Shown piece by piece: positions 7,786-43,906 of a stretch of 64,000 bases of DNA. The translations under genes were made by a program, and so were the position numbers. This stretch comes from an uncultured Chloroflexia bacterium (GTDB lineage Bacteria; Chloroflexota; Limnocylindria; Limnocylindrales; CSP1-4): positions 1,408,001 through 1,472,000 of the forward strand of contig CAWFXA010000002.1 in assembly GCA_963819655.1 (NCBI GenBank), given 5' to 3'. The notes under the pieces were generated by a model. That model was not told the origin of the DNA. It saw only the letters and a program-made list of their open reading frames with translations, and searched no databases. Numbering within the stretch: position 1 is the stretch's first letter; the number at the start of each line of letters is the position of its first letter.

Positions 7786-7790
7786 CCGGA

Positions 7791-7966
7791 TACACCGCCA
7801 GATACTCGCCCGGGGAGTCTTGGGCAGGGTCCACGGCTCGTCACGGCCATGGCGGGCAGGTCGCGGAGATGATTCGTGCACGGCGACACGGCGAAACGAT
7901 CCGAATCGCGCTCGATCGGGCTGGATTGCTCGCCTAAGACTCCCACGGCGAGTTTTTGGCGGAGTA
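7791..7966. repeat. Intergenic inverted-repeat element, family C
   Basis: 35-bp arms: TACACCGCCAGATACTCGCCCGGGGAGTCTTGGGC (7791-7825) versus the reverse complement of 7932-7966, TACTCCGCCAAAAACTCGCCGTGGGAGTCTTAGGC. Confidence 0.75.
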
Positions 7967-7989
7967 GAGCGATCTGGCGGGCAACTCGC

Positions 7990-10413: not shown

Positions 10414-12407
10414 AGGTAGGACCGCCGAAGGTCGGATCGCCGATCCCCAAGGTGCGCGACGTCGGCTCCCACATGGCGTTCATGTGGGACAAGAACCTGC
10501 TGCGGCTGGCCGTGCTCATCAGCGTCCTGGCGGTGTTGGTCGCAGTGAACGGGGCGCGTGGCGTCATGGAGGGCGCGATCGCCGCGATCGGCCTCCTGCC
10601 GGTCCTGGCCCTCCAGATGATGTTCGTGGCCTTCCTGATCATCTTCCAGTTCGTGATCATGTTCTGGTTCCTGTCGCGACCGCGGAAGTACACGACCACC
10701 CCCGACGACGCCCAGATCGACCTCTCGTTCGAGAACTACCGGGGTCAGCCCGACCTCCTCGAGCATGCCAAGAGCACGGTCAGGATCCTGCGCGGCCAGA
10801 GCGCGTTCAAGGCTGCGGGCGGCGAGATGCCGAAGGGCATGCTGCTGTCCGGCCTCCCGGGCACCGGCAAGACATTCCTGGCAGGCTGCATCGCCGCCGA
10901 GGGAAAGCTGCCGTTCATCTATATCGACGCGTCGTCGTTGCGCGGCATGTTCTGGGGCATGGACGCGCTGATGGTCATGAAGCTGTTCCGTGACGCCCGC
11001 GGTCTGGCTCGGAAATACGCCGAACCCGGCGAGCGCGGCGTCTGCATCCTGTTCGTCGACGAGCTCGATTCCATCGGTCTTGCGCGCGGGGGGCAGGGGA
11101 CCGGCGTCGGGATGCCCGGCGGCGTCTTCGGCGGTGGGTCGGGCGGTCTCAACACCCTGCTCAATCAGATGGACTCGCTCGGCGATCACGTGGAGGATCG
11201 CTGGTCCCACAAGCTGCTGCGCTGGTTCGGGCTCGTCCGTGGACCGGTCCGCAACAAGCCGCTCGTGTTCGTGATCGGTGCGACCAACCGACCCGAGGTC
11301 CTGGACTCGGCGTTGACGCGACCGGGTCGGCTCGATCGCATCCTCGAGGTGTACGCGCCTGACGGCGACGGTCGGCGCGACATCATCACGCACTACCTCG
11401 CGAAGAAACAGCACGACCCCGACATCGACATCGATTTCATGATCGGCGACTCGATCGGATGGACCCCGGCGATGATCAAGACGATCATCAACGAGGCCCT
11501 CGTCTCCGCCCACGAGGAGGGGCGCGACCGGCTGACCTATCGCGACTGGCTGGCGGCGGCCGACGCCCGGACGTTGGGGCTCAAGCAACCGATCCGACGG
11601 ATGCACGAGGACGACCGTCGGTCGATCGCGTACCACGAGGCGGGCCACGCCGTCGCGGCGTATTACCTCCAGCCCGAGAACCGGATCATCAAGGCGACGA
11701 TCATCCGGCGCGGCGGCGCGCTCGGTGTCGTGCAACCGCAGCCGCGCGAGGAGCGCTACACCCGCCACGCGCGCCAGTTCGAGACACAGATCATGACGTT
11801 CCTCGGGTCTCGCGCGGTCGAGGAGGAGATCCTCGAGACGAAGATGACCGGCGCATCGTCCGACCTGATGGTCGCGTCGTCGATCGCCCTCAGCTACTGC
11901 GGCATCTTCGGGATGGGCTCCGGGCTGCTCGTCATGCCGCCGCAGCAGAACGCGCTGGCGTACCCGATGCCGATCGCCCGGATGGCCGCGTCATTGCTCG
12001 ACACGCTGATGATCGAGACGAAGCGGCTGGTGCGCGAGAAGGAGTACGCCGTCCACGCGGTGGCCGCGGCGCTGCTGGAGAAGGGCGAGCTGATCGGCAC
12101 CGAGCTCGAAGCGGTGTTCGAACAGGCGGATGCGCGGAACGCCGATGCGGCCGCTCCGTTCGAGCGTCAGCTCTTCTCGCTGCCGCGCCTGTTCGACGAG
12201 CCTGGTCAGGGCGCCCCGGGCGCAACCGAATGGCCGGCCGACTCGACCGGGGCCGCGGCGGCGTCCTGGGAGCTTCTCGGCGAGCCCGGCTCGGCGCTCC
12301 CGTCGCGAACGTCGTGGACGCTGTACCTCGAGCCGGGTCAGATCCCGCCGGACGATTTCCACGCTCCGCCGAAGTTCCGGCCGGGGGACCCGCCGCCCCG
12401 CGACTGA
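10410..12407 (+). CDS. FtsH-like membrane AAA+ zinc metalloprotease (divergent paralogue)
   Basis: Two N-terminal TMs, Walker A GLPGTGKT, Walker B ILFVDELD, SRH ATNRPEVLDSALTRPGRLDR, HEAGH and TGASSDL M41 motifs. Confidence 0.9.
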   Translation: MKVGPPKVGSPIPKVRDVGSHMAFMWDKNLLRLAVLISVLAVLVAVNGARGVMEGAIAAIGLLPVLALQMMFVAFLIIFQFVIMFWFLSRPRKYTTTPDDAQIDLSFENYRGQPDLLEHAKSTVRILRGQSAFKAAGGEMPKGMLLSGLPGTGKTFLAGCIAAEGKLPFIYIDASSLRGMFWGMDALMVMKLFRDARGLARKYAEPGERGVCILFVDELDSIGLARGGQGTGVGMPGGVFGGGSGGLNTLLNQMDSLGDHVEDRWSHKLLRWFGLVRGPVRNKPLVFVIGATNRPEVLDSALTRPGRLDRILEVYAPDGDGRRDIITHYLAKKQHDPDIDIDFMIGDSIGWTPAMIKTIINEALVSAHEEGRDRLTYRDWLAAADARTLGLKQPIRRMHEDDRRSIAYHEAGHAVAAYYLQPENRIIKATIIRRGGALGVVQPQPREERYTRHARQFETQIMTFLGSRAVEEEILETKMTGASSDLMVASSIALSYCGIFGMGSGLLVMPPQQNALAYPMPIARMAASLLDTLMIETKRLVREKEYAVHAVAAALLEKGELIGTELEAVFEQADARNADAAAPFERQLFSLPRLFDEPGQGAPGATEWPADSTGAAAASWELLGEPGSALPSRTSWTLYLEPGQIPPDDFHAPPKFRPGDPPPRD

Positions 12408-12519
12408 TCGCGCCTCGACCGGGCACATCAGCCGAAGGCCTTTTTCCGCCAGCTATCGCTGCACCGTTGCGCAGTCGGCGATAAGTCCGGGTTGAGCCTC
12501 GCTCGCCAGAATCGCATCG

Positions 12520-13266
12520 ATGGACTCGATGCAGCGGTGCGGCGCCACATTTCGGGCCGTCCGGATCAAGCGGGGTTGGCGACAGATCGATGTCGCGGCG
12601 CGAGCTGGGGTGAACCGCTCGGTCGTTTCGGCTATCGAGCGCGGCCATCTCGAGAACGTGTCGATCGGCACGCTCCTCGAGATCGCGCGCGCCCTGGACA
12701 TCCAGGTCACGTTCGGTACGCGGTGGCGAGCCGGGGACCTCGACCGACTCGTCAGCGGTCGACATTCTCGGCTTCATGAAGCCGTCGGGAGGTGGTTCGC
12801 CACCGCATTGCCCGACTGGATCCTCGCCCCGGAAGTCTCGTTCTCGTTCTTTGGGGAGCGGGGCGTCATCGACATCCTGGCCTGGCACCCCGGCCGGCGC
12901 GCCCTTCTGGTGATCGAGCTCAAGACCGATCTCGCGGATGTGAACGAGCTGATCGGCACCATGGACCGGCGGCGGCGGCTCGCGTGGGACATCGCCAAGG
13001 AGCGAGGATGGGAGCCGCTCACCGTCTCGAGCTGGGTGCTCGTGGCCGGTGGACGGACGAATCGCGCTCGGATCTCCGCGCACAGAACGCTGCTCCGCAC
13101 GGCGTTTCCGGTCGATGGACGGACCGTCGCCGGTTGGTTACGACGGCCAGATCGGGATATCCACGCGCTCTCGCTCTGGGACAGGGTGCGTGATGACGGC
13201 GGTTCCGGCGACTTTGCGGCCCGGCATCGGGTGCGACGACGGTCCGCGGCGTCTGTCCGACCATGA
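12520..13266 (+). CDS. XRE-type HTH plus PD-(D/E)XK restriction-endonuclease-like domain protein
   Basis: RIKRGWRQIDVAARAGVNRSVVSAIERG HTH; PEV...IDILAWH...LLVIELKT fits the E...D...ExK nuclease motif. Confidence 0.75.
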   Translation: MDSMQRCGATFRAVRIKRGWRQIDVAARAGVNRSVVSAIERGHLENVSIGTLLEIARALDIQVTFGTRWRAGDLDRLVSGRHSRLHEAVGRWFATALPDWILAPEVSFSFFGERGVIDILAWHPGRRALLVIELKTDLADVNELIGTMDRRRRLAWDIAKERGWEPLTVSSWVLVAGGRTNRARISAHRTLLRTAFPVDGRTVAGWLRRPDRDIHALSLWDRVRDDGGSGDFAARHRVRRRSAASVRP

Positions 13267-13446
13267 ACTACGCGGATGGCAGCGACCTTAGGTCTTGCAG
13301 GAGTCGGGTCGACGCCGCTCTGTGCCCCGCCGACCGGCCATAAGGCGGCCATCGATGCGCGATGTGCATGGTCGACGGCGTTGCAACCGTCGCCGCGGGC
13401 CTGGAGCCCGACATTAGGTCGCTGTGATGCGCGTACTTCATGGTCG
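13258..13446. repeat. Three-unit inverted-repeat element, family B copy 1
   Basis: Forward unit 13258-13294; reverse units 13336-13374 and 13410-13446 (ends 72 bp apart). Approximate consensus CGACCATGMAnWWYGCGSATnnnnGCGRCCTTAnG. Confidence 0.75.
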
Positions 13447-13569
13447 CGGGGAGTTGCGCGGGCCGGGGAGGGCCGGGCGGGTCGGGGAGGGCCGGGCGCC
13501 TTGGTCGTCGGGAGGCGGGTCGGGGGTCGTGCGCCGGGCGGGCCTCGGGCCTCCGGGCGGGGCACGCGG

Positions 13570-14430
13570 CTACAGGTCGCGCCGCCGCAGCGAGACGACC
13601 GCCAGGACGAGCACGACCACGATCCATGCCGCGCTCCACGCGAGGAACGTGGCGGGCGGTGGTGCCGATGCGAAGAACGGGTTGGCGTCGGCCGCCGGGC
13701 CGGCGCCGCTGATCGCGCCGGCTACGACCAGCTGCGGTTCGAGGCTGTAGATCGTTCCGCGCCACAGCCCGTCGCTCGGCAGGAGCCAGCGCGACGCTTC
13801 GGCCGCGGCGACCAGCGGCCCCGCGTCGAAGAACCGCCCGATGCCCGCGAAGACGCCGGCCATCCAGCCCAGGCCGAACAGCACGACGCAGATCGCCCCG
13901 CCGGCGATCGCCGGCAGCCGCGTGCTCAACAGCATCGCGAACGTGAGCAGGACGACCGCCTGGGCAGCCAGGAAGACAACGGCCAGCAATGGCTGGGGCG
14001 GCGTGTAGCCGGACACCAACCGGACCGCCGCGATCTCGAGCAGCCCGGAGCCGGCGGCATAGGCAGCGATGACGACCACGAGACCGAGCCACCGGCCGAC
14101 GATCAGATCCGCTCGACGGATCGGCCGCGCGAGCATGGCGTGTGCCACGCCGGACTCGAGGTCCGCCGCGATCGCCGGCGCCCCGAGGAATGCCGCGGTC
14201 ATGGCCAGCACGAAGCTGAACATGAACGCCACCAGGATCTGGACCTGCGAGACCCCGAGCACGATCTCGAGATCGGGCGTCCCGCCGTCGCGCGCGAGCG
14301 TCACGAGTCGCTCGATGCCCCACGTGGTGAGCGCGACGCTGACCACCGTCAGCGCGAACAGGACCGCGAGGATGCGCCGTCGGGCCGTCTCGGCGACGGT
14401 GAGGCGGGCGATGATCAGGATCGCTCTCAT
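13570..14430 (-). CDS. ABC-2 type transporter permease
   Basis: Multiple TMs, DLESGVAHAMLARPIRR motif, C-terminal RRRDL. Confidence 0.88.
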   Translation of the reverse strand: MRAILIIARLTVAETARRRILAVLFALTVVSVALTTWGIERLVTLARDGGTPDLEIVLGVSQVQILVAFMFSFVLAMTAAFLGAPAIAADLESGVAHAMLARPIRRADLIVGRWLGLVVVIAAYAAGSGLLEIAAVRLVSGYTPPQPLLAVVFLAAQAVVLLTFAMLLSTRLPAIAGGAICVVLFGLGWMAGVFAGIGRFFDAGPLVAAAEASRWLLPSDGLWRGTIYSLEPQLVVAGAISGAGPAADANPFFASAPPPATFLAWSAAWIVVVLVLAVVSLRRRDL

Positions 14431-24671: not shown

Positions 24672-24740
24672 CTGGTCGTGCCGGGTCGGGCATTGTGCGG
24701 GCCGCGGCCGCCGCTGCTCATCCTGCGGGCCGCGGCCGCT

Positions 24741-24927
24741 CATCATGAACAACGCGCATGAGGACGGCCTTATGACAGGCGACGGCTCGGTCTGACGCCC
24801 GTTCGGCACCTCGAACGTGCATATCGCGCCTAGCGAGCGACCTTAGGCGGATCGTGACGCCCCGCTCGGGCCTGAAACAGACGAGAACGGGCCACAAGGT
24901 TGCCCTCATCCGCATTCTTCATGGTCG
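24741..24927. repeat. Three-unit inverted-repeat element, family B copy 2
   Basis: Forward units 24741-24776 and 24812-24848 (cores at 24744 and 24816, 72 bp apart); reverse unit 24890-24927; similar to 13258-13446. Confidence 0.75.
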
Positions 24928-25155
24928 GGAGGATCGGGAGGATCGGGAGGGCCGGGAGGGCGAGCCCGGATTCCGAGAGGCCCGCGAGGGCCGGGAGGGG
25001 GATCGCCGGGATGGTCGAGAAGGCCGCGTTGGTGGCGACGGCCGCGAGGGCTCGGGATGTCCCGCACGTGTCCCGCACCACCTCGCAGGTCCCACGACCG
25101 CACCGGGACCATCGACCCATCCGGTGCGGGTCGCGTGCATGGATAGACTGCCAAG

Positions 25156-36103: not shown

Positions 36104-37203
<1,100 letters not shown>

Positions 37204-37353
37204 GGGCGCACTCCTCCGACCTGGTCGCCATCGCGGGTCCATGCATCCCAGTCGCAGAAGCGATGTCGCGCCCGAAGGCGTGACGCGGACGGACCCCGTA
37301 CGTGGCGGCGCAGGGTCTCGCATCGTACACCGGCGTACCATCACCCTACTTCG

Positions 37354-43829: not shown

Positions 43830-43906
43830 TGGGGTGGCCTATGGGGCTCGAACCCATAACCTTCGGAGCCACAATCCGATGCTCTGCCGATTGAGCTAAG
43901 GCCACC
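43830..43906 (-). tRNA. tRNA-His(GTG)
   Basis: GGTGGCCTTAGCTCAATCGGCAGAGCATCGGATTGTGGCTCCGAAGGTTATGGGTTCGAGCCCCATAGGCCACCCCA; cloverleaf with encoded G-1 and CCA. Confidence 0.97.

Follow-up and report, generated by a model that had tools for sequence, protein, structure and literature searches.

Is a gene whose stop codon lies inside a repeat the partner of that repeat, even when nearly all other copies of the repeat lie far from it? This question is raised by gene p1 and the element at its 3' end, which we found in a 64,000-nt stretch of DNA (hereafter, the window) from an uncultured Chloroflexota bacterium of the order Limnocylindrales. The window is C2:1408001-1472000 of the source genome G000 (3.49 Mb, 69% G+C, three contigs, 91% complete), such that a window position is the genome coordinate minus 1408000. 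Gene p1 (12520..13266, + strand) is an open reading frame (ORF) for a 248-amino-acid protein with an XRE-type helix-turn-helix (HTH) domain, a predicted PD-(D/E)XK-fold nuclease domain, and a disordered tail, and it abuts a three-unit element of a repeat family that we named F1 (13254..13451). So far, REPIN/RAYT is the standard example in which a domesticated single-copy enzyme lives with dispersed repeat doublets. For p1 and its homologs, we observed a persistent and specific pairing between orthogroups of HTH plus PD-(D/E)XK proteins and variants of a ~40-bp unit arranged in inverted doublets of 160-200 bp, and the gene family is specific to Limnocylindrales. We put at about even the chance that this is a RAYT/REPIN-like system of a nuclease and its cognate repeats built on a restriction-fold enzyme. 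An earlier note on this DNA had suggested an analogous gene-plus-repeat system; the adjacency of gene and repeat stands and extends to other paralogs, whereas the mechanism is still one that we infer and a detail of the proposed left end was wrong.

The HTH domain of p1 spans residues 1-66 (12520..12717, +). A Pfam search of the whole protein found HTH_3 (PF01381; residues 12-63, E 1.2e-11, 44.9 bits against a cut-off of 23) and no other family, and by this domain p1 belongs to the XRE family. The closest structures are C.AhdI, C.BclI, and HipB, with C.AhdI (1y7y_B) as the best match (Z 11.5, root-mean-square deviation 1.9 over 64 residues); Foldseek also gave C-proteins and HipB. Profile searches against NCBIfam, PADLOC, and PDB matched the HTH only and placed the C-terminal domain in no sequence family, and one weak match to PDC-S02 (E 0.012) came from the defense-profile, NCBIfam, and PDB profile searches.

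For the remainder of the protein, the evidence is mostly structural. The AlphaFold2 (AF2) model of the whole protein has a predicted local distance difference test (pLDDT) score of 83.6, and the last 26 residues (223-248) fall below 50 and are predicted to be disordered. Because the HTH dominated fold searches with the whole protein, the C-terminal domain was folded alone (residues 68-225, AF2; pLDDT 91.5). With this model, Foldseek matched restriction-endonuclease-fold proteins only (E 6.5e-4 to 0.1), namely, SduA (E 6.5e-4), the restriction-like endonuclease (RLE) of the R2 retrotransposon (7.9e-4), Card1, BstEII, VC1899, Bax1, NucS/EndoMS, Can2, McrC, XisH, and PfoI. The VIA comparison gave Can2 (Z 8.5 over 113 residues), VC1899 (Z 8.4), and NucS (Z 8.1), with 105-113 residues aligned. 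These fold scores for the modeled domain are modest, yet the list is consistent and agrees with the motif: E113, D118, E133, and K135 are invariant in 42 aligned homologs (alignment A2) and again in alignment A3. The PD-(D/E)XK fold expected in the earlier note was thus also the outcome of structure prediction, and the domain (residues ~80-222; 12757..13185, +) has the restriction-endonuclease-like alpha/beta core and the conserved acidic and lysine residues of that superfamily, as a predicted nuclease. A profile of this domain matched 1,838 clusters (50% identity) at E<=0.001 and 1,359 at 1e-10; in most of the proteins listed, the domain begins near residue 67, i.e., behind an HTH.

The element at the 3' end of p1 was delimited with nhmmer and with the unit model R1, which was built from 37 aligned F1 units (alignment A1) and run with filters off and up to E 10. 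In the nhmmer scan, its units lie at 13254..13299 (+, E 1.5e-9), 13333..13377 (-, E 2e-8), and 13405..13451 (-, E 4.7e-9; 49.8 bits with R1), slightly wider than the 13258-13294, 13336-13374, and 13410-13446 first reported, and the outer arms are 84% complementary over 37 nt. As had been noticed, the stop codon of p1 (TGA, 13264-13266) sits within the first unit, where it is part of a conserved CATGAA. The gene-less copy reported at 24741-24927 was found at 24737..24932 with units at 24737-24781 (+), 24808-24853 (+), and 24890-24932 (-). Here too, the stop codon of the upstream gene (24746-24748) is the TGA of the conserved CATGAA. As both elements end the upstream ORF in the TGA of a unit, they supply the stop codon and tail of a neighboring ORF. 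A 31-nt degenerate pattern derived from the units had three matches in the window compared to none in each of 100 shuffled sequences.

The proposed scan with a unit model, run on G000 and its relatives, revealed a dispersed family. In G000, F1 comprises 17 elements of 180-206 bp, each with two outer inverted units of ~40 bp and, in many cases, a middle one that can point either way. The unit consensus (A1) consists of conserved blocks with variable positions between them and is non-palindromic. The copies have diverged: even the two most similar ones reach only ~79% identity over 265 bp, the copy at C2:1027047-1027240 has 13 of 107 words in common with the window element, and the left arm of the copy at C3:136094-136284 reached only E 2.7 in the nhmmer scan and E 1.5e-7 with R1. 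Within subfamilies, the spacer sequences are 75-83% identical, so these elements arose by duplication of whole elements, and the gene-less doublets have been dispersed in this way. According to our own rough gene caller, on which all intergenic and orientation calls rest, all 17 elements are intergenic, with 7 between convergent, 8 between co-directional, and 2 between divergent genes; convergent gaps account for 127 of the 910 intergenic regions of at least 150 bp in G000.

An inverted repeat of this size could also be a structured non-coding RNA gene, for which the copy at C2:1027047-1027240 may serve as an example. As single-stranded DNA, F1 folds into a long hairpin (-58.1 kcal/mol, z -4.2), and the elements are conserved among relatives. 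However, such a fold is expected of any inverted repeat, and the two arms show no compensatory variation: the identity between arms of one element is 0.645 compared to 0.641 when partners are shuffled (a value at least as high as that observed came up in 805 of 2000 shuffles), and the concordance at variable columns is 0.469 compared to 0.467. In subfamily A, left arms and right arms each hold their own variant form across four copies. The middle unit occurs in either orientation, the 17 divergent copies lie in any orientation relative to the neighboring genes, and no F1 element in the window matched Rfam at gathering thresholds, all of which make an RNA gene highly improbable. Without covariation between the arms, the units resemble motifs recognized by a protein rather than hairpin RNA. 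Elsewhere in the window, Rfam models identified a malK-III motif (37201-37315, -; 61.5 bits against a gathering threshold of 50) and a tRNA gene (43833-43905, -).

If the units are recognized by a protein, is p1 that protein? At first sight, gene and repeat are unlinked in G000, which has about nine paralogs of the family and in which 16 of the 17 F1 elements are far from all of them, but four lines of evidence overturn that impression. The closest orthologs of p1 (73-75% identity) occur in G021 and G024, and these are the relatives richest in F1 units (R1 matches: 11 in G021, 6 in G024, 2 in G014, and a weak one in G011). In G021, the ortholog is flanked by a doublet on both sides (L030 1268-1442 upstream and 2232-2409 downstream); the single doublet of G024 lies upstream of the gene, and that of G000 downstream. 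At nine homologs that are less closely related (L031-L039), no F1 unit reached E<0.5. Among 79 family loci from GTDB species representatives, each with flanks of ~6 kb, all 18 F1 matches (E<=0.01) lie within ~330 bp of p1 orthologs (63-93% identity) in 10 of the loci, and no F1 match was found elsewhere in these flanks. F1 is present in all eight genomes that have a p1 ortholog (G000, G021, G024, and G041-G045, the last five with 28, 8, 4, 6, and 3 matches to dispersed units) compared to 2 of the 22 genomes of the genus without one (G014, plus the weak match in G011). The earlier expectation that homologs of the gene would be enriched in adjacent repeats is strongly borne out by these counts and by the general model described below.

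The p1 orthologs all reside at one syntenic locus, between ftsH-like and ABC-permease genes, and comparisons at this locus reveal gain or loss. In G007, the two genes converge with ~32 bp between their stop codons and neither gene nor element between them, facing a gene-plus-element cassette of 1.16 kb in G000. The cassette is inverted relative to its neighbors in three species (L057-L059). About 12.7 kb separates the p1 ortholog from the ABC permease in G024 (C4:16712-30972). The presence of solo doublets also differs among relatives, as G000 has empty sites (L023, L024, and L019) where G021 and G014 have doublets, while other doublets are common to orthologous sites.

The upstream side of p1 in G000 is a site of variation as well. 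The eroded left unit proposed at 12416 did not survive this analysis: R1 gave no match there, the nearest weak R1 matches lie elsewhere (L028 local 333-350 and 1193-1220), and this model found no recognizable remnant of a unit in the upstream spacer of G000. In G021 and G024, a complete F1 doublet occupies the corresponding position, and in a close relative present in sequencing runs X1 and X2, the 69 nt at 12410-12478 are replaced by 122 other letters. Because of these ortholog doublets and this replacement, we consider the spacer (12410..12478) a variable site. The run comparison involved contigs only, from 20 runs, none of them listed as RNA, each with at most one fifth of the sampled words; 13232-13453 lay outside the cover, and the whole stretch was unspanned.

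The pairing is not confined to p1. Paralog p3 (C2:1395763-1396465, 47% identical to p1), located ~12 kb before the window, lies between two doublets of a second family, F2, which has nine doublets in G000, all between co-directional genes. One gene-less F2 doublet is in the window (7789..7969; units 7789-7833, +, and 7923-7969, -) and nearly fills the gap between two co-directional genes, with margins of 3 and 20 bp. The F2 units have 15 invariant columns, and their spacers are unrelated except for those of one tandem pair (C2:1499452-1499842), which are 87% identical and thus indicate local duplication of a whole doublet. Paralog p2 (C3:151697-152338, 51% identical to p1) has a doublet of a third family, F3, at its 3' end; F3 has four loci in G000, its unit is an internal palindrome, and the adjacency to p2 is kept in G021 and G024. 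All 30 loci of F1, F2, and F3 are intergenic. Other paralogs of G000 have less: p4 has a local 29-nt inverted pair only, and p5 and p9 have local repeats of no assigned family.

Beyond G000, the orthogroups of L074, L077, and L115 have their own inverted pairs of 160-171 bp beside the gene. These came from a de novo BLAST search for inverted repeats beside the 79 homologs, in which they were the positives (two among 75 windows upstream of the gene and one among 74 downstream, compared to one among 606 controls); this search was too insensitive, as it missed even the known F1 doublets. There are thus at least six unit variants, namely, F1, F2, F3, and those at L074, L077, and L115. When aligned together, they reveal a common layout, and from sequence comparison they seem to have diverged from a single ancestral site. 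Different orthogroups go with different but related units, such that protein and site appear to have diverged together.

To combine all of these variants, we built a general unit hidden Markov model (HMM; matches at E<=5), with "near" defined as within 400 bp of the gene ends, a zone that covers 15.6% of the non-gene bases. Of its 70 matches, 60 were near family genes and 10 far (binomial p 3e-38), with a near match at 33 of the 79 loci, an enrichment that is somewhat inflated because near zones are mostly intergenic and far zones mostly coding. Excluding the p1 orthogroup and the loci used in model building left 31 near and 7 far matches at 20 of 59 loci. Reversed sequences, a control that handles composition only, gave no matches. 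The matches form +/- pairs at a distance of ~150 bp. Those upstream of a gene stop ~40-60 bp short of its start codon, and those downstream start at the end of the folded domain.

[quoted passage not shown] Chance is a poor account of three repeat families that adjoin three different paralogs in one genome, or of the family-wide positional enrichment given above. Moreover, the units bound no known insertion sequence (IS) transposase in G000, an outcome that the earlier note had named as one that would count against its proposal. The sole gene bounded by units in this genome is the HTH-nuclease gene, and because all units are in compact doublets of at most 206 bp, there is no room for a transposase. 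The Y1/HUH transposase family PF01797 had no matches in G000 (91% complete), while matches of the positive control occurred in 6 of 14 genomes. We therefore consider ordinary MITEs very improbable.

Could gene and doublets instead move together? In such a scenario, a mobile doublet-gene-doublet cassette of ~1.14 kb would be the active unit, and solo doublets would be relics of recombination between directly repeated flanking doublets, as in solo long terminal repeats. The same architecture of ~1.13-1.14 kb is found for p1 in G021 (L030 1268-2409) and for p3 in G000 (C2:1395554-1396684), the empty site of G007 is that of a whole cassette, and the three-unit forms and the inversions in L057-L059 show recombination among units. 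However, each orthogroup is single-copy, with paralogs at most 51-54% identical and no recent gene duplicates seen, and the shared locus of all p1 orthologs also speaks against it. Except for L169, there were also no gene fragments within 1.5 kb of solo doublets. A mobile cassette is decidedly unlikely on this evidence.

A different role for the protein would be that of a host DNA-binding factor, either an autoregulator or a nucleoid or regulon factor, with the units as its operators, a nuclease-like domain that serves in oligomerization or another role, and repeats that are not mobilized by the protein. Several features fit this explanation, as the units act as conserved sequence motifs without covariation between arms, the palindrome of F3 is typical of operators for dimeric HTH proteins, strong conservation in F2 is confined to the units, with unrelated spacers, all nine F2 doublets lie between co-directional genes, and upstream doublets stop shortly before the start codon. 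On the other hand, no promoter is expected between the convergent genes that enclose 7 of the 17 F1 elements, and the most frequent position of doublets is the 3' end of a gene. Doublets that are present or absent between close relatives, and F1 subfamilies that have spread by duplication with a common spacer sequence, are also at odds with fixed operators, as is the invariance of the catalytic E/D/E-x-K residues. An operator regulon with its sites in promoter regions does not describe F1, while F2 is found only between co-directional genes. Taken together, we consider a purely regulatory role unlikely.

Regulation of the genes themselves may involve a separate word. GATAAG occurs at 12480..12485 (+), ~36-41 nt 5' of the p1 start codon. 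It turns up in the 100 nt before the start at 21 of 77 loci of the family, compared to a background of 0.0011 per 100 nt. From this distribution, GATAAG may serve family genes as a promoter or operator. In family genes, it is often followed by a GGTGAG-like word. A promoter and terminator scan of 12300-13650 gave no promoter-like and no terminator-like sites.

Returning to the RAYT/REPIN-like reading, we infer that the protein binds and cleaves DNA and takes part in dispersing or maintaining the repeats. Most likely, the HTH would read the ~40-bp unit, and the protein would bind and synapse the two inverted units of a doublet, after which the nuclease domain would nick or cleave at the element ends. 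Host repair and recombination could then duplicate, move, delete, or invert elements. The gene itself would stay single-copy per orthogroup and be inherited vertically, as RAYT genes are, with one or two doublets or triplets abutting it and further gene-less copies scattered through intergenic DNA.

The ends of the elements may bear traces of such events. The window element is adjoined by a tandem array of period 19 (13458..13498; 2.2 copies, TRF), and the end of the gene-less element is overlapped by an array of period 9 (24925..24959; 3.9 copies, TRF). In G000, 12 of the 17 F1 elements have a short tandem array at most 60 bp away, compared to 326 of 2880 (11%) random pseudo-elements placed in large intergenic regions. 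Their periods range from 9 to 38, and others include those at C3:1003517-1003659, C3:476010-476159, and C2:1615899-1615992. At least eight arrays overlap the terminal 2-17 nt of the F1 element, which indicates that the junction itself was duplicated; host repair as outlined above might perhaps also produce these duplications, and they may be scars of repeated staggered cleavage. A bolder and more tentative proposal, which we hold to be possible but well short of probable, is that the HTH-PD-(D/E)XK proteins are a new class of repeat-mobilizing enzyme. Such a restriction-fold "transposase" would cut doublet ends and copy, delete, or invert elements of ~190 bp, joint diversification of protein and site would have given rise to many specificities (six or more unit variants and 1,838 clusters), and the tandem junctions would be staggered-cleavage scars.

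Several observations weigh against an active partnership. Because the p1 orthologs share one locus, their adjacency to F1 is one inherited and conserved event, not ten independent ones; the independent support for the gene-repeat link is that from F2 with p3, F3 with p2, and the other orthogroups. Under the general model, 46 of the 79 family loci had no nearby unit, and for paralogs p6, p7, and p8 of G000, no flanking repeat family was found. G014 has F1, yet no p1 ortholog was found in this genome (79% complete), and G024 has four F2 doublets, yet no p3 ortholog was found there. In G000, the coding sequence of p3 is split between two frames that meet near C2:1395911, either from a one-base frameshift that makes it a pseudogene or from an indel error in the assembly. 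To judge from their divergence, the F1 copies appear old and without sign of recent activity in G000. No target-site duplication was evident in the F1 flanks, nor could one be delimited at the junctions of filled and empty sites, which are strongly diverged. Finally, conserved F2 units with unrelated spacers are explained by selection on binding sites no less well than by ongoing copying.

If the RAYT/REPIN-like reading is true, partnerships of enzymes and repeats evolved more than once, here on an unrelated fold in an order of uncultured soil and freshwater Chloroflexota. A domain family of ~1,800 clusters that is unannotated and now labeled just "XRE transcriptional regulator" would gain a function, and a class of intergenic repeats would be explained. 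The matched pairs of protein and ~40-bp site would also provide a natural series for the co-evolution of DNA-recognition specificity. If mobilization by the nuclease holds, the reading would be categorically new. In the titles and abstract openings that made up our literature sample, with subscription journals and supplementary files outside its scope, no PD-(D/E)XK/HTH gene was paired with dispersed repeats.

Among known systems, the controller (C) proteins of restriction-modification systems and HipB-type XRE regulators are closest to p1 in the HTH domain, and palindromic or paired operators are typical of them. In contrast, the HTH of p1 is fused to a nuclease-fold domain, and the sites of its family are dispersed doublets of 160-200 bp, often at gene 3' ends or between convergent genes. 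PD-(D/E)XK nucleases are tied to mobile or rearranging DNA in several systems, namely, TnsA of Tn7, the restriction-like endonuclease of the R2 retrotransposon, XisH, and Rpn/YhgA "Transposase_31". With these, p1 has in common the restriction-endonuclease-like fold and the D...(D/E)xK motif, and both R2 RLE and XisH are among its structural matches. However, p1 is in no matched sequence family and is without a partner transposase, reverse transcriptase, or recombinase domain.

In the pairs formed by IS elements and MITEs, the likeness is in the repeats: F1 elements are short, non-coding, and intergenic, have terminal inverted repeats and subfamilies, and differ in presence between relatives. 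The differences are that no recognized transposase has these ends, the p1 gene is not multi-copy, complete doublets rather than single terminal repeats flank it, and a target-site duplication is not evident in the flanks. Lacking a transposase partner, p1 and F1 do not form an IS/MITE pair.

The RAYT genes are closer in organization. In the part of the account by PMC5581495 that we draw on, RAYT genes are single-copy per type, vertically inherited, and flanked by their own repeats, which are inverted doublets dispersed extragenically, and enzyme clades pair with different repeat sequences (PMC5581495). Measured against that part, the p1 family is likewise single-copy per type, vertically inherited, and flanked by cognate repeats that are over-represented in extragenic DNA, and it also has dispersed inverted doublets and enzyme clades with different repeats. 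It differs in the enzyme, which has an XRE-HTH and a PD-(D/E)XK fold rather than the HUH/Y1 (IS200-like) fold, and because this defining HUH/Y1 feature is lacking, the system is not a member of RAYT/REPIN. The F1 units are ~40 bp and non-palindromic, in doublets of 160-200 bp with long spacers; their arms do not co-vary and give no sign of hairpin recognition as single-stranded DNA. Neither a REP palindrome nor a maintained hairpin is thus a feature of F1, while the F3 unit is palindromic. In addition, three or more paralogous systems coexist in one genome here. With these differences in enzyme and repeat, the p1 system follows the same genomic logic as RAYT/REPIN and IS/MITE.

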